From the NCBI RefSeq assembly GCF_003790525.1, contig NZ_CP033635.1: a stretch of 64,000 nt of DNA. One strand, 5' to 3'. This DNA is from Escherichia coli (GTDB lineage: Bacteria; Pseudomonadota; Gammaproteobacteria; Enterobacterales; Enterobacteriaceae). Positions 6,092 through 47,775 of the stretch are shown one piece after another; the stretch's first letter is position 1, and the number at the start of each line of letters is the position of its first letter. The notes below the pieces were generated by a model that searched no databases, was not told the origin of the DNA, and saw nothing but the letters and a program-made list of their open reading frames with translations. A program made the translations under genes and the position numbers.

Positions 6092-6614
6092 GATGTGCCT
6101 CCTGCCATTCCAGCAGACGTTGCTTATAGTGACGCGCCTGTCCTTCGAGGGTTTCGTCGTCACAAATAAAGGTGCAGTGCATGGCAAACGGTGGCAGCCA
6201 GTTCAGCCCGCAGTAGATTGCCGTCGCCTGTAGCGGCTGCGACAGCACATCAAAGCCCGGATGCGCACCAATCTCAAAATGGCTTTCCCCACCGCCGGTC
6301 GTCACCGCCCACAGCAAATGTTTGCCATGCAGCGCCGTGCCGCCGTGACCGTAAGCCCAGCCGTGCGAGAAGACTTTATCGATCCAAAGTTTGAGGAGCG
6401 GTGGAATGCTGTACCACTGCATCGGGTGCTGCCAGACGATCAGATCGGCGCGAGACAGCGCCTCCTGCTCGGCGGCAATATCGATATTGAAGTCAGGATA
6501 GAGTTGATAAAGAGAGCGAATTTCGACGCCTTCCAGCGTCCTTGCCTGTTCAAGCATCCGTTTATTCGCATGGGAATGATGCGGATACGGATGCGCATAA
6601 ATTATAAGAATCAT
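6084..6614 (-). CDS. kefF: KefC ancillary protein / quinone oxidoreductase KefF
   Basis: 176 aa [25 protein letters not shown]... flavodoxin-like NAD(P)H oxidoreductase immediately upstream of kefC. Confidence 0.9.
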
Positions 6615-6721
6615 AGGTAGCCCGCGTGATTACGCCTTTGTTTTCCCACAAAGTGTAGTCATATATTCACGCGGCTTATAGTCAATAATATTGATTCAGA
6701 AAAGAGAGAAATCTGAACAAA

Positions 6722-8053
6722 TTACCCCATTCTCTGCCCGCGGATCGTCATATTGCTGGTCTGCGCCAGTGACATCCCTCGAGTCTCCGGAGCAAACGCT
6801 ACGGAAATCAACAAGCCAAATAGCGAGATACCCGCCCCCATCAGCATGGTGCTACTGATGCCGTAATTATTGATAAAGATTGGCAGTGCCCAGGTCGAAA
6901 CAATGGTGCCAATACGGCTTAAGGACATAATCACGCCCACGGCAGAGGCGCGGATATCCGTCGGGAAGAGTTCATTAGGATAGAGCCACTGCAAATTACC
7001 CGGCCCGCCAGAGAAAAAGGCATACACCGCAAATGCCATCACTACCAGCCAGATCCCCATATCCGGGATCAGCCCCAAAACCGCCAGCGCCAGCGTCATC
7101 ATGGCAAAACTGCCAATCAACAATGGACGCCGTCCGGCGGTGTTTAACCACAGCATCGGCGGAATACAGCCAAGCATAAAGAACAGGCTAATCACCACAT
7201 TCCCCAACGCCGCGTTTTTGCCAACTCCCAATCCCAACAAACCAACGATTTGCGGGCCAAAGGTGTAAATGGCGAACATGGGGATCACCTGGCAGGTCCA
7301 GATGGCGGCAACAAACAGAACAAAAGGAAAATGGCGGCGATTAAACAGATCGCGAAAACGGGTTTGCTGCGGCTGCTCTTCATCGAAAGCCACCGGTTCG
7401 CCAAACAGTTTTATCATCATCTCTTCGCACTCTTTTACTCGCCCTTTGCGTAACAACCAGCGGGGAGATTCAGGCAGTTCGAATCGACCAATCAAAATCA
7501 ACAAACAGGGGATCGCTGCGCTACCCAGCATCCAGCGCCAACCACCTTCCACATCATAAAGCCAGTAACCGACCAGATCGGCGCAGGTCGCGCCGACATA
7601 CCACATCGCGGCAATAAAGCTGATGGAAAACGCCCGCTGACGGGTACTGGAGAACTCGGTGATCATTGAGGTGGCGATGGGATAATCCGCACCGATGACA
7701 ATGCCGATAAGTACCCGCATCACCAACAGTTCGACGGGGGATGAGACAAACATCGTCGCCACAGATATCACGCCGATGGCGATGATATCAATGAGGAACA
7801 TTTTGCGCCGTCCGACTTTATCGGAGATATAGCCAAACAGCGATGTGCCAACGAACAGCCCGGCGAGCGTTCCCGCGCCCAGCAAGCCAATCCAGTCAGC
7901 GTCCAGTTTCAGCGCCGGAGTCAGTTGCTCCAGCGCCACGCCAATCATTACCAGTACATAACCATCCAGAAACGGACCACCGCTTCCCCACAGCAAAATG
8001 CGGCGGTGAATAGAGGAGAATTTAAGATCGTCAAAGTTTCTGGACGGTTGCAT
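6722..8053 (-). CDS. yaaU: MFS transporter YaaU
   Basis: 443 aa multi-pass membrane protein with MFS sugar-transporter-like motifs; conserved position between kefF and fixX. Confidence 0.85.
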   Translation of the reverse strand: MQPSRNFDDLKFSSIHRRILLWGSGGPFLDGYVLVMIGVALEQLTPALKLDADWIGLLGAGTLAGLFVGTSLFGYISDKVGRRKMFLIDIIAIGVISVATMFVSSPVELLVMRVLIGIVIGADYPIATSMITEFSSTRQRAFSISFIAAMWYVGATCADLVGYWLYDVEGGWRWMLGSAAIPCLLILIGRFELPESPRWLLRKGRVKECEEMMIKLFGEPVAFDEEQPQQTRFRDLFNRRHFPFVLFVAAIWTCQVIPMFAIYTFGPQIVGLLGLGVGKNAALGNVVISLFFMLGCIPPMLWLNTAGRRPLLIGSFAMMTLALAVLGLIPDMGIWLVVMAFAVYAFFSGGPGNLQWLYPNELFPTDIRASAVGVIMSLSRIGTIVSTWALPIFINNYGISSTMLMGAGISLFGLLISVAFAPETRGMSLAQTSNMTIRGQRMG

Positions 8054-8111
8054 GGGTTATTCCTGTTTTTTTGCAATGAGAGTCAGTACGGCGTTACGTA
8101 TCAAACCAACA

Positions 8112-8399
8112 TCAGCCGTAACGGAACTCCACACCAAAGGTGCCGCGCGGGTATTCCCACTGTTCCAGCGCCGACCCCAGCCCCAGAATGCGACAGGTGC
8201 CGCACTCCAGACATCCGGCGTAATCGAAGCGCACACTGCCGTCATCCTGCTTCTTGTACAGACCTGCGGGGCACGCTTTCACCAGCAGCTCCAGCGCCTG
8301 TTTATCGGCATCGGCCTTCACAACAATGTGCGGATGCTCTTCATCGACATTGAATTTATTGACGCCCAGTTTGACGTCCACATTGACGGGAGAAGTCAT
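8112..8399 (-). CDS. fixX: Ferredoxin-like protein FixX
   Basis: 95 aa with CPAGLY...CLECGTC ferredoxin motifs; overlaps fixC stop by 4 nt. Confidence 0.9.
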   Translation of the reverse strand: MTSPVNVDVKLGVNKFNVDEEHPHIVVKADADKQALELLVKACPAGLYKKQDDGSVRFDYAGCLECGTCRILGLGSALEQWEYPRGTFGVEFRYG

Positions 8400-9682
8400 A
8401 AAACGGTCACTCCTTTCATGCCATCCTTGATCAGATTGATGAAGCCCACTTTCTTGCCGTGGCGGAGGATTTTCTTGCGCATCAGTTCCGGCGCACTGCC
8501 GTCAATGGTGAACAGGTCACGCGCCACGCCCACCGCCAGTTCCGGGTAGCCGTTAAACATGCGTGGGTTATCAAGGAACGCCGGTAGTTTCTGGTACATG
8601 CGCATATCGCGCAGCGGGCCACTCTCAAGATGCTGACGATATTCCGCGAGTTTTTGCTTACTGAAATCGTCGCTTTTCATCGCTGAAAGCACAGTTTTTG
8701 CTGCTGCTTCCCCGGCGGCAATCGCCAGATCCATACCGCGAATGGTAAAACCGAGGTTCATACACATTCCGGCGGCATCACCGGCAATCAGTACGCCGTC
8801 ACCAACCAACTCCGGCAGCATGTTGATGCCTGCTTCCGGCACTACGTGAGCGGAATATTCCACCAGCTTGCCGCCTGCGATCAGCGGTGCAACGGCCGGA
8901 TGTTGTTTGAAATCTTCCAGCATTTGCGGCACCGATTTTTTTGCGTCATGCAGATGATGCAAACCACAAACCAGCCCCAGCGACAGGGTATTTTCATTGG
9001 TATAAAGGAAGCCACCGCCCATCAGGCCATCGGTGGGTGATCCCGCAAACAGGCAAGCCGCGCCCTGATTACCCTGCAACTGAAAACGGTCTTCGATAAC
9101 CGACTTCGGTAACTCGATCAGTTCCTTCACGCCAACCGCCACATCCGTCGGTTTAACGCGTTTTGCCATCCCCAGCTTTTCGGCAAGGATGGAATTCACC
9201 CCATCAGCAAGGATCACCGTTTTCGCTTCAATCACATCGCCATCAGCTTCTACGCCGACAACTTTGCCATCGCGCTGTACGAGGTTATCGACGCGGATCC
9301 CGGTAATTAACTGCGCGTCCGCTTCTTCGGCCTGCTCCATCAGCCAGGCATCAAATTTACTGCGCAAAACGGAGTAAGAACGCTGGGATGGCGAGGTTTC
9401 GTCGCCATTGCAGTAGTCCATAGTCATCGCTGACTTTTCCGTCATAAACGCGAGTTTTTCATGGGTGATCAGGCGTTCTACGGGGGCGGAGTCAGCGAAA
9501 CCAGGAATAATGTGTTCCAGACTGTGGGCATAGAGACGCCCGCCGGTGACGTTCTTGGCACCTGCGGAATTGCCTCGCTCGATAACTAACACTTGCGCAC
9601 CTTCGCGGGCGAGCACCAGTGCGGCAACCGAACCGGCAAGCCCTGCACCGACGATGATGGCGTCAAAGATATCTTCGGACAT
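8396..9682 (-). CDS. fixC: Flavoprotein oxidoreductase FixC (ETF-QO-like)
   Basis: 428 aa, N-terminal FAD-binding GxGxxG (IVGAGLAGSVAA); downstream of fixB. Confidence 0.9.
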   Translation of the reverse strand: MSEDIFDAIIVGAGLAGSVAALVLAREGAQVLVIERGNSAGAKNVTGGRLYAHSLEHIIPGFADSAPVERLITHEKLAFMTEKSAMTMDYCNGDETSPSQRSYSVLRSKFDAWLMEQAEEADAQLITGIRVDNLVQRDGKVVGVEADGDVIEAKTVILADGVNSILAEKLGMAKRVKPTDVAVGVKELIELPKSVIEDRFQLQGNQGAACLFAGSPTDGLMGGGFLYTNENTLSLGLVCGLHHLHDAKKSVPQMLEDFKQHPAVAPLIAGGKLVEYSAHVVPEAGINMLPELVGDGVLIAGDAAGMCMNLGFTIRGMDLAIAAGEAAAKTVLSAMKSDDFSKQKLAEYRQHLESGPLRDMRMYQKLPAFLDNPRMFNGYPELAVGVARDLFTIDGSAPELMRKKILRHGKKVGFINLIKDGMKGVTVL

Positions 9683-13476: not shown

Positions 13477-14619
13477 ATGGATTTTAATTTAAATGATGAG
13501 CAGGAACTGTTTGTCGCCGGTATCCGCGAACTGATGGCCAGCGAAAACTGGGAGGCCTATTTTGCCGAGTGCGACCGTGACAGCGTCTACCCGGAACGTT
13601 TTGTCAAAGCACTGGCGGATATGGGTATCGACAGTCTGCTGATCCCTGAAGAGCACGGTGGTCTGGACGCGGGGTTTGTTACTCTCGCCGCCGTGTGGAT
13701 GGAGCTGGGACGTCTGGGGGCACCAACCTATGTGCTGTACCAGTTGCCGGGCGGGTTCAATACCTTCCTGCGCGAAGGCACACAAGAGCAGATCGACAAG
13801 ATTATGGCTTTCCGCGGCACCGGTAAGCAGATGTGGAACTCAGCGATTACCGAACCGGGTGCGGGCTCCGACGTGGGTAGCCTGAAAACGACTTATACCC
13901 GTAGAAATGGTAAGATTTATCTTAATGGTAGTAAGTGTTTTATTACCAGTAGCGCCTACACCCCGTACATCGTGGTGATGGCGCGCGACGGGGCTTCTCC
14001 GGACAAACCTGTCTACACCGAATGGTTTGTTGATATGAGCAAACCGGGCATCAAAGTGACCAAACTTGAAAAGCTCGGTCTGCGTATGGATAGCTGCTGT
14101 GAAATCACTTTTGACGACGTGGAACTGGACGAGAAAGACATGTTCGGTCGGGAAGGTAACGGCTTTAACCGCGTCAAAGAAGAGTTCGACCATGAACGTT
14201 TCCTGGTAGCCCTGACCAACTACGGTACGGCGATGTGCGCCTTTGAAGATGCGGCGCGCTACGCCAACCAGCGTGTGCAGTTTGGCGAGGCTATTGGTCG
14301 TTTCCAGTTGATTCAGGAAAAATTCGCCCACATGGCGATCAAATTAAACTCCATGAAAAACATGCTGTATGAAGCAGCGTGGAAAGCAGACAACGGCACC
14401 ATCACCTCTGGCGATGCAGCGATGTGCAAATACTTCTGCGCCAATGCGGCATTTGAAGTGGTGGATAGCGCAATGCAGGTGCTGGGCGGTGTCGGGATTG
14501 CGGGCAACCACCGCATCAGCCGCTTCTGGCGTGACCTGCGTGTAGACCGCGTTTCCGGAGGATCTGACGAAATGCAGATCCTGACGCTGGGTCGCGCGGT
14601 GCTGAAGCAATACCGCTAA
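13477..14619 (+). CDS. caiA: Crotonobetainyl-CoA reductase/dehydrogenase CaiA
   Basis: 380 aa acyl-CoA dehydrogenase family sequence. Confidence 0.95.
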
Positions 14620-42230: not shown

Positions 42231-42992
42231 TTAGAAATCATAACCAAGCATATAAATCATTTGATCGCCAAAACCATCGTAGCCCAACTTATTATCGAAA
42301 TAACGCCACGTCACACTGGCTTTCCAGCGAGGATAGAACTTCCAGGCCACTGTTAAACCGCCATTTAGCCCATTCCGACCAAATTGTTGTTCCGCATAGG
42401 CATCATTTCTGTCCAGTTCTATTTCATTCCAGTTAGATAAAACAAATTTTTCGTCAAATAACGTAAAAGGTAATACTGCTGTCCAGCCAACAACATAACC
42501 ATTCCAGCCATTTGTTTGTCCATATTTGGCTGAGACGTAGTCTCCAGATTGATTATGTAATCCAATATACGGTTTAAAAAACCCCCATGAACCATTCCAG
42601 CCGAGGTAGCCCAAACCATAAAACATATCAAGATCGTCACCCCATGAGTTATCCCATTGACCATAGATCTTGCCAAAGAAAGTCATATTGGAGTCAAAGA
42701 GTCTGACATGTGTCATAGCAGAAACGGTATGATTACGCCCCGCTACGGCATGGTTAAGCACATTGCTTTCATAAAATGAGTAAAACTCGGCTTCTTTAAA
42801 ATTCACACCAAAGTCTGCAGTCACTTTCCATACTTCACCACGATGAGTGTTAACGAAGCCACTATTCCAGTCAGCATAACCTGCATTTATTGAGCCAAAG
42901 GAACCTTTATATTCTAATGAAGAATATGCAGGAAGGTGATAGAAAATCGTTGTCAGGGCACACGCAATAAGAAGCCGTCTTTTGGCAGACAT
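42231..42992 (-). CDS. Tsx-family outer membrane channel protein, accessory
   Basis: 253 aa with signal peptide, aromatic-rich beta-barrel-like sequence ending ...MIYMLGYDF (compare Tsx C-terminus ...VVGYNF); RBS GGAGAG; 19 nt upstream of sulfatase gene. Confidence 0.7.
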   Translation of the reverse strand: MSAKRRLLIACALTTIFYHLPAYSSLEYKGSFGSINAGYADWNSGFVNTHRGEVWKVTADFGVNFKEAEFYSFYESNVLNHAVAGRNHTVSAMTHVRLFDSNMTFFGKIYGQWDNSWGDDLDMFYGLGYLGWNGSWGFFKPYIGLHNQSGDYVSAKYGQTNGWNGYVVGWTAVLPFTLFDEKFVLSNWNEIELDRNDAYAEQQFGRNGLNGGLTVAWKFYPRWKASVTWRYFDNKLGYDGFGDQMIYMLGYDF

Positions 42993-43500
42993 ATAATATG
43001 CTCTCCATTCATTTTTTTTATGGTTCCATAGAAATCAATACATCAGATAATTCATTTTGATTAAGAACGACTCAGAAAGTATATTTAAAGGTGAATGGCA
43101 AAGCGTGATGGAGATCGCAGATTACTTTTACCCCCGGGTGTGGAGGTATCGTGTTTCAAAAAGTGTGTCGATTTTAAATATCACTCATTGATTTATAAAC
43201 ATTTTTCCTCACAAAAAGAAAATTCAATTCTGTACAAGAATATTTTGTATCTTCTATTACTTTCTCCAGTAATAACTCACCATTCAGGCATAACTTAAAC
43301 CTCTTGTTCATAATCTCAACTTTTGTAAATGAAAACGCACATAAGAGTTAAAATAAACAATGTACTAAAGATTGATTACGCAAAAATGCGAGGCGTCTTC
43401 AGGATTAGAATCGATAAAACAGAATGGGTTAAAGAGAGCGATATAATAGCGGCGGGTGCTTGAGGCTGTCTGTCTCAGGCATTAGCTGAACGGCAGATAG

Positions 43501-43555
43501 AGAAAAGCCCCGAGTGATATTTTACCATCAACCCGAGGCCCCCTATATGCAGAAC
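43501..43555 (-). ncRNA. sokC: sokC antisense RNA (position inferred from K-12 hokC/sokC geometry)
   Basis: Placed by conserved offset relative to the mokC start; antisense to the mokC 5' region; boundaries approximate. Confidence 0.35.
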
Positions 43556-43756
43556 ACATGTAGAGTGCCTCTTACTGACCGTAAGGTCAAGGAGAAGAGA
43601 GCAATGAAGCAGCATAAGGCGATGATTGTCGCCCTGATCGTCATCTGTATCACCGCCGTAGTGGCGGCGCTGGTAACGAGAAAAGACCTCTGTGAGGTTC
43701 ACATCCGAACTGGCCAGACGGAGGTTGCTGTTTTCACGGCTTACGAATCCGAGTAA
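43547..43756 (+). CDS. mokC: MokC, overlapping regulatory reading frame of the hokC toxin locus
   Basis: 69-codon frame MQNTCRVPLTDRKVKEKRA-MKQHKA... co-terminal with hokC. Confidence 0.65.
   Translation: MQNTCRVPLTDRKVKEKRAMKQHKAMIVALIVICITAVVAALVTRKDLCEVHIRTGQTEVAVFTAYESE
43604..43756 (+). CDS. hokC: Type I toxin HokC (Gef)
   Basis: 50 aa MKQHKAMIVALIVICITAVVAALVTRKDLCEVHIRTGQTEVAVFTAYESE recognised as Hok/Gef family toxin. Confidence 0.9.
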   Translation: MKQHKAMIVALIVICITAVVAALVTRKDLCEVHIRTGQTEVAVFTAYESE

Positions 43757-43830
43757 GAGCAACGGCGGGGAGTGATCCCCGCCACTTTACAGGTGCTCGC
43801 ATATCTTCAACGCACCCTATTTTTACCCTG

Positions 43831-43856
43831 GCCTGCCCACGGGCAGGCTTTTGGGG
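43831..43856 (+). terminator. Stem-loop plus T-run at 3' end of hokC transcript
   Basis: gcctgcccacgggcaggc followed by ttttgggg, 75 nt after hokC stop; IS186 that follows hokC in K-12 is absent here. Confidence 0.45.
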
Positions 43857-43859
43857 AGG

Positions 43860-44990
43860 TTAGCGAGTCAGGTCGTCAAAAAACTTCTTCACACCATCAA
43901 AGAAGCTCTTTGAACGCGGGCTGTTGTGCTCGCCGGTTGGGCCACCGAAGCTTTCCTGCAGCTCTTGCAGCAGCTGTTTCTGCTTCTCGTTCAGACCTAC
44001 CGGTGTTTCGACGACAACGCGGCACAGCAAGTCCCCTTGCGCACCGCCGCGAACAGACTTGACGCCTTTACCACGCATACGGAACAGCTTACCGGTCTGG
44101 GTTTCGCCAGGCACTTTCAGTTTGACGCGACCATCAAGGGTCGGTACTTCGATTTCGCCACCCAGCGCTGCCATCGCGAAGTTGATCGGGACTTCGCAAT
44201 ACAGGTTGTTACCTTCACGCTCGAAAATCGGGTGCTGTTTAACCTGAACCTGAACGTACAGATCGCCTGCCGGTGCGCCATGCTCGCCCGCTTCACCTTC
44301 GCCCGCAAGACGGATGCGGTCTCCAGTGTCCACCCCTGCCGGGATTTTAACGGACAGCGTTTTGCTGCGCTCAACACGACCATGACCATGACATTTGTTG
44401 CACGGATCTTTGATCAGCGTACCGCGGCCCTGACAGTGTGGACAGGTCTGCTGTACAGCGAAGAAGCCCTGGCGCATCTGCACCTGACCAGAACCATGAC
44501 AGGTCGGACAGGTCTGCGGCTGTGTACCTGGTTTTGCACCGCTACCGTGGCAAACGTCACACTCTTCCAGAGTCGGAATGCGGATCTCTTTGGTCACGCC
44601 ACGTACAGCTTCTTCGAGGGTGAGCTCCATGTTATAGCGTAAATCAGCACCGCGCGCCGCACGTTGACGACCACGTCCGCCGCCAAAAATATCGCCGAAA
44701 ACGTCACCAAAAATATCGCTGAAGTCTGCGCCGCCGCCAAAACCGCCGCCGCCCATGCCGCCTTGCTCAAACGCAGCATGACCATACTGATCGTATGCCG
44801 CACGTTTTTGCGAGTCGGTCAGAACTTCATAAGCTTCCTTGATCTCTTTAAATTTCGCCTCGGCCTCTTTGTCACCCTGGTTACGGTCCGGGTGGTATTT
44901 CATGGCCAGGCGTTTGTAGGCCTTTTTGATTTCACGCTCTTCCGCTGTTTTGGAAACGCCTAAAATCTCGTAATAATCTTGCTTAGCCAT
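43860..44990 (-). CDS. dnaJ: Chaperone DnaJ (Hsp40)
   Basis: Track ORF trimmed to [40 protein letters not shown]...; J-domain HPD, Gly-rich linker, four CxxCxGxG zinc motifs. Confidence 0.97.
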
Positions 44991-45078
44991 CTTTTTTAAA
45001 TTGCCCCTAGATGAATGCACGGGCGGAGAGGAAATTCCCCTTCGCCCGTGTCAGTATAATTACCCGTTTATAGGGCGA

Positions 45079-46995
45079 TTATTTTTTGTCTTTGACTTCT
45101 TCAAATTCAGCGTCGACAACATCGTCATCTTTCGCGTTGTTTGCAGAAGCATCAGCACCGGCAGTCTGCTGCTGGGCATGTTGCTGCTGGGCGATTTCCA
45201 TCAGTTTCTGGGAAACCTGTGCCAGTTCCTGCATTTTCGCTTCGATAGCGGCTTTGTCTTCACCTTTCAGAGCAGTTTCCAGTGCAGTCAGTGCAGACTC
45301 GATAGCAGTTTTGTCGTCAGCCGGCAGTTTGTCGCCTGCTTCTTCAACCTGCTTACGGGTGCTGTGCAGCAGATGGTCGCCCTGGTTGCGAGTCTGTACC
45401 AGCTCTTCAAACTTACGGTCAGCTTCGGCGTTAGCTTCTGCGTCGCGTACCATTTTCTGGATTTCATCTTCGTTCAGACCAGAAGAAGCCTTGATGGTGA
45501 TCTTCTGCTCTTTACCGCTGTTTTTATCTTTCGCGGAAACGTGCAGGATACCGTCAGCATCGATATCGAAGGTAACTTCGATCTGCGGCATGCCGCGCGG
45601 TGCCGGGTTGATACCATCCAGGTTGAACTGACCCAGAGATTTGTTATCAGCCGCACGTTTACGTTCACCCTGCAGCACGTGGATGGTTACCGCAGACTGG
45701 TTGTCTTCAGCGGTAGAGAACACCTGGCTGTGCTTGGTCGGGATAGTGGTGTTTTTCGCGATCAGCGTCGTCATCACACCGCCCATGGTTTCGATACCCA
45801 GAGACAGCGGGGTAACGTCCAGCAGCAGTACGTCTTTCACGTCACCAGTCAGAACACCACCCTGAACAGCAGCACCGATTGCTACAGCTTCGTCCGGGTT
45901 AACGTCTTTACGCGGCTCTTTACCAAAGAATTCAGCAACTTTCTTCTGAACCATTGGCATACGAGTCTGACCACCAACGAGGATAACGTCGTCGATATCA
46001 GATACGGACAGGCCAGCGTCCTGCAGTGCAACTTTCAGCGGCTCAATGGAACGGTTTACCAGATCTTCAACCAGGCTTTCCAGTTTCGCACGAGTCACTT
46101 TGATGTTCATGTGTTTCGGACCGGTCGCGTCTGCAGTGATGTACGGCAGGTTAACGTCGGTCTGCTGAGCGGAAGACAGTTCGATTTTCGCTTTTTCTGC
46201 CGCTTCTTTCAGGCGCTGCATTGCCAGCGGATCGTTGCGCAGGTCAATGCCCTGATCTTTCTTGAATTCTTCAACCAGGTAGTTGATCAGACGGCTGTCG
46301 AAGTCTTCACCCCCCAGGTGGGTATCACCGTTGGTTGCCAGAACTTCGAAGGTTTTTTCGCCGTCAACTTCGTCGATTTCGATAATAGAAATATCGAAAG
46401 TACCACCACCCAGGTCATAAACCGCGATAGTACGGTTGCCAGTACCTTTGTCCAGACCGTAAGCCAGCGCAGCTGCGGTCGGTTCGTTGATGATACGTTT
46501 TACTTCCAGACCAGCGATACGGCCTGCGTCTTTGGTTGCCTGACGCTGAGCATCGTTAAAGTATGCCGGTACGGTGATAACAGCTTCAGTTACCGGTTCA
46601 CCCAGGTAATCTTCAGCGGTTTTCTTCATTTTTTTCAGCACTTCAGCAGAGATCTGCGGCGGTGCCATTTTCTGGCCTTTAACTTCGACCCATGCGTCGC
46701 CGTTATCAGCAGCAATAATTTTGAACGGCATGATGGAAACATCACGCTGTACTTCTTCGTCCTGGAAGCGGCGGCCAATCAGGCGTTTAATCGCAAACAG
46801 GGTGTTTTGCGGGTTCGTCACTGCCTGACGTTTAGCCGGCTGACCAACCAGAGTTTCACCATCCTGGGTATAGGCAATGATAGAAGGCGTGGTGCGATCG
46901 CCTTCGGCGTTCTCCAGTACACGAGGAGTGGTGCCATCCATAATCGCTACACAAGAGTTGGTAGTACCCAGGTCGATACCAATTATTTTACCCAT
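45079..46995 (-). CDS. dnaK: Chaperone DnaK (Hsp70)
   Basis: 638 aa [65 protein letters not shown]... Confidence 0.98.
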
Positions 46996-47042
46996 CTAAA
47001 CGTCTCCACTATATATTCGGTCATCATGTGGTTGTGAGTCTG

Positions 47043-47145
47043 TAATAGGGGCGAAACGTCTGGTTTCAACTGCCCAATTTCATTTTTTTGCAGACTCACT
47101 CACTGCGGTTGACTACTAAATGGGGTCGTAACCCACGTCATCAAG
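47043..47145 (-). promoter_or_regulatory. dnaK heat-shock (sigma-32) promoters P1 and P2
   Basis: Reverse strand reads CTTGATG-(14)-CCCCATTTA (P1, 47117-47145) and TTGAAAC-(11)-CCCCTATTA (P2, 47043-47069), matching sigma-32 -35 CTTGAA / -10 CCCCATnT and my recollection of the published dnaK promoters. Confidence 0.7.
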
Positions 47146-47370
47146 GGGGAGATGCAAAAATTTTTTGTGCTTTTGCGCAGAAATTTCGCGATATGGCAGG
47201 ACAAGACATGAAACTGACCGCAATTTTATTCATATAGAGAATGAATGACAGCCAAGACATTCATAGAAAAATTGTAATAAAAAGAAAATATTACGTACCT
47301 GAATCTTCTCTTTATCAGCAGTAAACTAGTGGGTATTCATCCCCTACCTCTCCCTACTAAGAGAATCCTT

Positions 47371-47775
47371 ATGAAATCCGTTTTTACGCTTTCCGCCAGC
47401 CTGGCGATTAGCCTGCTGCTGTGCTGCACGGCGCAGGCAAACGACCATAAAATCCTCGGCGTCATTGCAATGCCGCGAAACGAAACCAACGATCTGGCGC
47501 TGAAACTTCCTGTTTGTCGCATTGTTAAACGCATTCAACTCACTGCCGACCATGGCGATTTACAGTTAAGTGGTGCATCGGTTTATTTCAAAGCCGCCCG
47601 TAGCGCCAGTCAGAGCCTGAATATTCCTTCAGAAATAAAAGAAGGGCAAACCACTGACTGGATCAACATTAACAGCGATAACGACAATAAACGCTGCGTC
47701 TCAAAAATCACCTTTTCCGGCCATACGGTGAACTCATCGGATATGGCCACGCTGAAAATTATCGGCGACGACTAA
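47371..47775 (+). CDS. yaaI: DUF2541-family secreted protein YaaI
   Basis: Track ORF trimmed to [23 protein letters not shown] (signal peptide); 134 aa; conserved position. Confidence 0.8.

Follow-up and report, generated by a model that had tools for sequence, protein, structure and literature searches.

DnaK and its co-chaperone DnaJ share one operon, yet the cell needs them in different quantities, and some stresses alter the amounts required. What could separate the output of the two genes? We examined the spacer between them in E. coli. The window, by which we mean the whole 64-kb stretch of DNA analysed, carries both genes on the minus strand (Table 1). Hence, the relevant RNA is the minus-strand transcript. 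Across the 701 bases tested, the window is 100% identical to E. coli strain SMS-3-5. Its spacer is identical to that of K-12 (14080-14167 of NC_000913.3), where the hairpin described below occupies 14108-14140. In 5424 of 5426 complete E. coli genomes, the 101-base stretch around the spacer is found as a single copy. Upstream of dnaK, positions 47149-47116 hold what we take to be promoter P1, an assignment that, like the sigma-32 promoter consensus, comes from established knowledge. Transcription from P1 is predicted to start near 47109, and the distance from there to 45013 is ~2.1 kb. For dnaJ, the sole Shine-Dalgarno-like element is the GGGG listed in Table 1, the counterpart of a conserved UAAGGG in other enteric bacteria. 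Judged by sequence, this GGGG would serve as the dnaJ Shine-Dalgarno and probably makes a weak ribosome-binding site.

Table 1. Positions of features at the dnaK-dnaJ locus within the window
Feature	Position	Strand	Basis
dnaK coding sequence, 638 aa	45079-46995	minus	open reading frame list; sequence and annotation comparison
dnaJ coding sequence, 376 aa, start ATG at 44990	43860-44990	minus	open reading frame list; sequence and annotation comparison
dnaK-dnaJ intercistronic spacer, 88 nt, catalogued as 'tpke11'	44991-45078	minus	open reading frames; Rfam RF02031; identity with K-12
Main hairpin, 33 nt	45018-45050	minus	folding; supported on 54 distinct orthologous sequences
Small upstream hairpin including the dnaK UAA stop, core GCCC/GGGU	45056-45082	minus	MFE and centroid folds; Rfam 3-bp helix
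Tail 3' of the stem, CAUUCAUCU, 4 U in 9 nt, non-canonical U-tract	45009-45017	minus	sequence
In vivo RNA 3' end (K-12 NC_000913.3 14145)	45013	minus	Adams et al. 2021, supplementary files 1 and 3, mapped via the identical spacer
Putative Shine-Dalgarno-like GGGG for dnaJ	45004-45007	minus	13 nt before AUG, long spacing
Presumed sigma-32 type promoter P1 of dnaK, CCCCCTTGA...CCCCATTTA	47116-47149	minus	sequence reading

On the far side of dnaJ, the hokC/mokC-sokC toxin-antitoxin locus adjoins the gene (window 43500-43760, plus strand). An Rfam sok match of 61.9 bits near dnaJ was clipped by the edge of the searched region. The IS186 copy found between dnaJ and hokC in K-12 MG1655 is missing from the window. 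After hokC, the SMS-3-5 annotation lists an OmpK/Tsx-like outer-membrane protein gene and a sulfatase-family gene (window 42231-42992, minus strand; SMS-3-5 locus 6409-8683); in K-12, nhaA is the next gene beyond hokC/sokC. Inside the 5' end of dnaJ there is a sigma-70-like promoter match, TTGGAA-16-AATAAT (44950-44977, plus strand), directed antisense into the spacer. At 9/12 positions, it is a consensus match only.

The first-pass annotation had drawn attention to an inverted repeat with a partly paired interior in this spacer. The repeat is present as CACGGGCG...CGCCCGTG. Most of the interval then proposed, 45014-45050, holds up as the stem at 45018-45050, while its first four bases (45014-45017) lie outside. 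The interior is indeed paired in part: a 6-bp inner helix with one G.U pair is flanked by an A/C mismatch. Read on the sense strand, the hairpin RNA is CACGGGCG-A-AGGGGA-AUU-UCCUCU-C-CGCCCGUG. The arms CACGGGCG (45050-45043) and CGCCCGUG (45025-45018) build an 8-bp outer stem in which 7/8 pairs are G-C, enclosing the A/C mismatch, the inner helix AGGGGA/UCCUCU and the 3-nt loop AUU. The stem starts 28 nt past the dnaK stop codon and ends 27 nt before the dnaJ AUG. Its folding energy (dG) is -23.4 kcal/mol. Shuffled sequences averaged -9.5 +/- 2.5 kcal/mol (z = -5.64), and none of 200 was as stable. When folded in a 110-nt context, the main hairpin is still dominant, and the small hairpin with the dnaK stop codon forms as well. 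The window contains the pattern ACGGGCG-N(8-26)-CGCCCGT once, and 0/100 shuffles contain it. The small hairpin at the dnaK stop codon has the pentamers of the main hairpin in reverse order (CGCCC...GGGCG against GGGCG...CGCCC).

Several other readings of the repeat were rejected. An antisense element is disfavoured because both genes are on the minus strand, the plus-strand Rfam score is only 22 bits and G.U pairing speaks for the sense strand. We also considered and set aside an antisense mini-ORF of 20 codons (45011-45073, plus strand). The association of an inverted repeat with a heat-shock chaperone operon is shared with CIRCE and with heat-shock RNA thermometers. CIRCE, the inverted repeat that serves many bacteria as the HrcA operator of dnaK/groE operons, has the consensus TTAGCACTC-N9-GAGTGCTAA, lies upstream of the operon and acts through HrcA. 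The spacer hairpin is unrelated in sequence to this consensus and is positioned within the operon, not upstream of it. To our knowledge, E. coli lacks HrcA. A thermometer of the ROSE or fourU type is also dismissed: at -23.4 kcal/mol the hairpin is far too stable, and with the stem ending 27 nt before the AUG and GGGG outside it, both Shine-Dalgarno and AUG are left uncovered.

The hairpin is already known. The spacer matches Rfam family RF02031 (tpke11) on the minus strand, 44991-45068, with 69.6 bits against a gathering score of 43 (E = 1.8e-14), and the match spans the full model (positions 1-77 of 77). Locus, strand and two-helix consensus are the same, and the sequence is without difference. 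The EcoCyc-based annotation in Adams et al. 2021 (PMC7815308) also places a gene, G0-8893 'tpke11', at the spacer. RF02031 itself goes back to an sRNA candidate that comparative screens of E. coli K-12 had proposed for this spacer. Hence, the first-pass naming of tpke11 in the K-12 spacer was correct. The element also has a 3' end in published data and is discussed in a paper from 2025, both considered below.

How far does the element extend? We fetched dnaJ loci from 80 species and extracted 78 gammaproteobacterial dnaK-dnaJ spacers. A stable GC hairpin is present in 78/78, including those from AT-rich reduced symbiont genomes. All Enterobacterales sampled have (G)CACGGGCG...CGCCCGUG(C), and this holds for insect symbionts with AT-rich reduced genomes too. 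For Buchnera, Degnan et al. 2011 described a structured element in the positionally orthologous spacer. The GGGCG/CGCCC hairpin also occurs in Vibrionaceae, Shewanella and Aliidiomarina. Pseudoalteromonas, Alteromonas and their relatives have another GC hairpin at the equivalent site, usually followed directly by UUU(U)G; the same arrangement of stem and UUU(U)G is seen in Shewanella, Vibrio and some enteric species. Serratia, Yersinia, Photorhabdus and Arsenophonus exceed the threshold of the RF02031 model, Aliidiomarina falls short of it, and no match at E < 1 was found in Vibrionaceae or Shewanella spacers. By sequence comparison, the core hairpin is more widespread than the Rfam family.

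Covariation was assessed with a 55-sequence alignment (A1) and a hand-specified 13-pair structure, using slid 3' partners as controls. Standard pairs filled 92.3% of cells, compared with 30-57% in the slid controls. Double-sided changes were found in 6/13 pairs, and the observed covariation score was reached by 0/500 shuffles. RNAalifold, run on a MAFFT alignment, returned 9 pairs only because the inner helix was misaligned across orders. Hence, pairs were counted on the hand-specified structure. Variation in A1 lies in the two outermost pairs and the inner helix. Of the six pairs at the centre, CGGGCG/CGCCCG (A1 columns 15-20/39-44), four are invariant and two have one G.U variant apiece. In 35 species folding is better for the sense strand than for the antisense strand, and in 9 it is the other way round; the Wilcoxon p is indicative only since species are non-independent. 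Two variant E. coli strains were compared. Their sole stem variant changes G.U to A-U, and the remaining variants lie in the A/U tract before the dnaJ AUG.

Further features of these spacers deserve description. The core CGGGCG/CGCCCG is near-invariant in Enterobacterales, Vibrionaceae, Shewanella and Aliidiomarina, and the loop, inner helix and flanks diverge. Structure alone would allow covariation in the core. Further upstream, UCGCCC after the UAA is fixed across Enterobacterales despite a changed partner or register (CCCUG/CAGGG in Enterobacteriaceae), and UCGCCC...CGGG is conserved in the mini-hairpin region of the order. Erwinia, Pantoea, Serratia, Yersinia, Pectobacterium, Edwardsiella, Photorhabdus and others have an extra hairpin between the mini- and main hairpins. 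Its sequence is highly variable and its arms are complementary within each species (e.g. locus L023, 1394-1501); it is missing in Escherichia, Citrobacter and Enterobacter. Longer spacers of 247-269 nt were found in Mangrovibacter, Ca. Enterovibrio escacola and one Vibrio species. The additional sequence lies before or after the conserved hairpin, and the Vibrio spacer has a short tandem AGAACCT repeat. Directly after the stem, most enteric species have CAUGUUAAGGG, which is probably the dnaJ Shine-Dalgarno region and gives an AUG-UUA-AGG mini-frame (A1 columns 48-60). E. coli and E. albertii have CAUCUAGGGG in its place, with no AUG (window 45004-45017, minus strand). We rejected a mini-uORF at this position; it is absent in E. 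coli and the frame is not conserved.

Published transcriptome data place an RNA end at the hairpin. For cells in LB at OD 0.4, the curated Term-seq ends of Adams et al. 2021 (PMC7815308) include a 3' end at 14145(+), annotated as lying inside tpke11, 23 nt before dnaJ begins. The printed flank puts this end at ...CGCCCGUGCAUUC-3', which is stem +5. Of three Term-seq conditions, only one showed this end, and the number of reads was modest (PMC7815308). The spacer does, then, contain a discrete transcript end, the absence of which the first-pass annotation had held to be incompatible with an mRNA element here. The Rho score of the end, 1.25, is not significant. Its intrinsic-terminator score under the Chen model is 4.33, where values of at least 3 are suggestive (PMC7815308). 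DirectRNA-seq over 800 nt on the upstream and on the downstream side gave 1085 and 351 reads without bicyclomycin, and 1076 and 435 with it (PMC7815308); reads drop ~3-fold across the site. The principal dnaK band on northern blots is a 2.1-kb RNA that carries dnaK alone, extended slightly at its 5' and its 3' end (Stead et al. 2011, PMC3082872). Its length agrees with the distance from the P1 start to 45013. In Salmonella, the dnaK:dnaJ ratio of both mRNA and protein increases in cytoplasmic Mg2+ starvation (Chan, Mukai and Groisman 2025, PMC12077118). The same authors noted no intrinsic-terminator-like sequence in the 85-nt Salmonella spacer, and left cleavage, termination or tpke11 action all possible. 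The literature searched yielded no explicit study of a dnaK-dnaJ terminator, attenuator or stem-loop, and no experiment on in vitro termination at the spacer by RNA polymerase alone.

Our preferred interpretation, to which we assign a probability of about one half, is that the hairpin is a leaky, factor-independent terminator and 3'-end protector that lowers dnaJ relative to dnaK. RNA polymerase would transcribe dnaK from the sigma-32 promoters, and the GC hairpin would form 28 nt past the stop codon. The majority of polymerases would then most likely release the transcript without Rho, at what may be a weak, leaky intrinsic-type terminator with a poor U-tract. Remaining polymerases would read through into dnaJ, and the stem would shield the 3' end of the dnaK mRNA from 3'-5' exonucleases. 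Together with the weak dnaJ ribosome-binding site, such termination would hold dnaJ expression below that of dnaK within one operon. We infer that the 3' end originates by termination, not cleavage, and that the hairpin sets the DnaK:DnaJ ratio.

The sequence resembles an intrinsic terminator in part. There is a stable GC-rich stem-loop, as the folding energy and outer pairs attest, but CAUUCAUCU is not the U-rich tract expected right after the stem. A scan of 43400-47600 for terminators with at least 5 T in 8 found no sense-strand site in the spacer. The d'Aubenton-Carafa score, from an approximate re-implementation, is about -10, which indicates a non-terminator. The tail of most enteric species, GCACGCAUGUUAAGGG, is even less U-rich than that of E. 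coli. With no U-tract and a score of about -10, yet 4.33 under the Chen model, the site is a borderline or weak terminator at best. Leaky termination is supported by the Rho-independent end, the Chen-model score above threshold and the terminator-like distant orthologues. Known leaky intra-operon terminators, such as those of rpsU-dnaG-rpoD, share the GC-rich intercistronic hairpin, a Rho-independent end past the stem, partial read-through and a step-down in downstream RNA. They differ from the spacer element, whose tail contains just 4 U in 9 nt and is not picked up by a simple consensus scan.

The same end could be made by processing. Here, an endonuclease would cut one dnaK-dnaJ RNA after the hairpin, in the A/U-rich sequence that leads up to the dnaJ AUG. 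The exonucleases PNPase or RNase II would then trim back and stall at the stem, giving stable dnaK mRNA and faster decay of dnaJ. Processing combined with an exonuclease barrier has classic parallels in the malE-malF REP and the intercistronic hairpins of the puf operon. With REP/BIME at malE-malF and with Rhodobacter puf, the spacer shares a stable intercistronic stem, a more common upstream segment and a 3' end at the stem base; published data that fit the functional analogy are the 1085 versus 351 reads, the 2.1-kb dnaK-only band and the end at +5. Unlike REP/BIME, the spacer element is single-copy and outside any dispersed repeat family, and the endonucleolytic step is putative. Membership of the REP family is rejected, as there is one copy in the window, none in shuffles and one place per genome in 5424 E. 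coli genomes. Only 5 nt separate the 3' end from the highly stable stem, the U-tract is poor, and the position is ambiguous because exonuclease stalling or trimming fits too. Retention of a very stable stem whatever the composition of the tail fits a barrier role. Adams et al. remark that most ends that are neither Rho-dependent nor intrinsic are processing products (PMC7815308). In Salmonella, the dnaJ segment's half-life is under separate regulation, and the equal levels of dnaK, spacer and dnaJ mRNA measured by qRT-PCR in high Mg2+ suggest full-length synthesis (PMC12077118). Against this, the 2.1-kb RNA is not lost but rises 2.3-fold in an RNase E deletion and 1.3-fold in an RNase III mutant (PMC3082872), which argues against either enzyme creating the end, although an RNase G variant compensates in the RNase E deletion strain, making it an imperfect control. 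The intrinsic-terminator score is above threshold (PMC7815308), a U-run directly follows the stem in distant orthologues, and neither a cleavage site nor a downstream 5' end is reported in the literature searched. Processing is the main rival to termination, and the less likely of the two. In our view, the stem would protect the dnaK 3' end under termination and processing alike. A specific variant of processing, in which the hairpin is itself an RNase III site separating dnaK and dnaJ segments as at rpsO-pnp, can draw on a tiling array where dnaJ RNA is more common only in the RNase III mutant (PMC3082872). A genome-wide site study also describes enrichment of RNase III sites in the stretches between genes of a transcript. 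Typical RNase III substrates have roughly two helical turns of duplex. The stem offers 14 pairs with an internal mismatch rather than ~20 bp of near-continuous duplex, and the mapped 3' end is outside it, where RNase III would be expected to cut inside. Moreover, two genome-wide studies of RNase III sites do not mention dnaK or dnaJ in their main text, and rnc mutants are reported to alter rpoH regulon expression indirectly. We consider RNase III cleavage extremely improbable.

Other explanations assign the hairpin a role outside formation of the dnaK 3' end. Rfam types RF02031 as 'Gene; sRNA', and tpke11 might be a genuine trans-acting sRNA from the spacer that pairs with the dnaKJ transcript itself or with mRNAs of other genes. 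The INTERFACE study (PMC6172242) reported gel-shift binding in vitro to pgsA, prlC and yehU, and Chan et al. 2025 speculated that tpke11 regulates dnaKJ, citing PhoP-dependent expression in Salmonella (PMC12077118). However, the RNA matched to the published northern is 371 nt, reaching 282 nt into dnaJ, and not a discrete 89-nt species (PMC6172242, supplementary file 5). With 282 nt of dnaJ coding sequence in the gel-shift RNA, the reported targets may reflect dnaJ mRNA rather than the spacer. A promoter scan of 43400-47600 found no sense-strand promoter-like site in or just before the spacer, and the sole mapped end is a 3' end common to the dnaK mRNA (PMC7815308). Published screens of biofilm, motility and fimbriae gave no phenotype for tpke11 overexpression, and Stead et al. 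2011 call tpke11 'putative' (PMC3082872). Current RefSeq records for K-12 and SMS-3-5 have no feature in the spacer, with the nearby sokC annotated as ncRNA. Conservation is concentrated in the paired stem, with no single-stranded seed. Given the need for a 371-nt RNA, the lack of an overexpression phenotype or sense promoter, and the stem-centred conservation, the 'sRNA gene' label is unsupported and a trans-acting sRNA is very unlikely. We regard 'tpke11' as the name of the spacer and not of a separate gene; in contrast to the Rfam label, the element would act in cis within the dnaKJ mRNA. The hairpin might instead act mainly on how dnaJ is translated or how stable its RNA is, set at a fixed distance before the dnaJ start as an insulator or 5' boundary that limits ribosome loading or re-initiation. 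Such a role is compatible with termination, processing and the other possibilities. It is favoured by the position of the stem end, 19-29 nt before the dnaJ ATG in 44/45 Enterobacterales despite distances of 24-64 nt from the dnaK stop, and by the conserved UAAGGG after the stem and the GGGG 13 nt from the AUG. Conversely, the hairpin leaves Shine-Dalgarno and AUG unsequestered, and in Vibrionaceae, Shewanella and Alteromonadales anything from 28 to 150 nt separates it from the ATG. Hence, we doubt that this is the principal function. We likewise give a low probability to the idea that the core CGGGCG/CGCCCG, whose pentamers recur in the mini-hairpin, is more than a passive stem, being a sequence-specific site for a conserved factor, or an attenuator tuned by conditions such as elongation rate, ATP or Mg2+.

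The hairpin is the obvious cis element for uncoupling dnaK and dnaJ. The 2025 Salmonella study (PMC12077118) pointed to the spacer and left the mechanism of differential expression open. Our contribution is modest: it reconciles the Rfam entry with the 3' end and the 2.1-kb transcript from the literature and with the broad conservation, and makes the case for 'tpke11' as a cis-acting terminator and stabiliser rather than an sRNA gene. If the core were instead a recognition site or attenuator, it would provide a mechanism for the stress-dependent dnaK:dnaJ shift in Salmonella.
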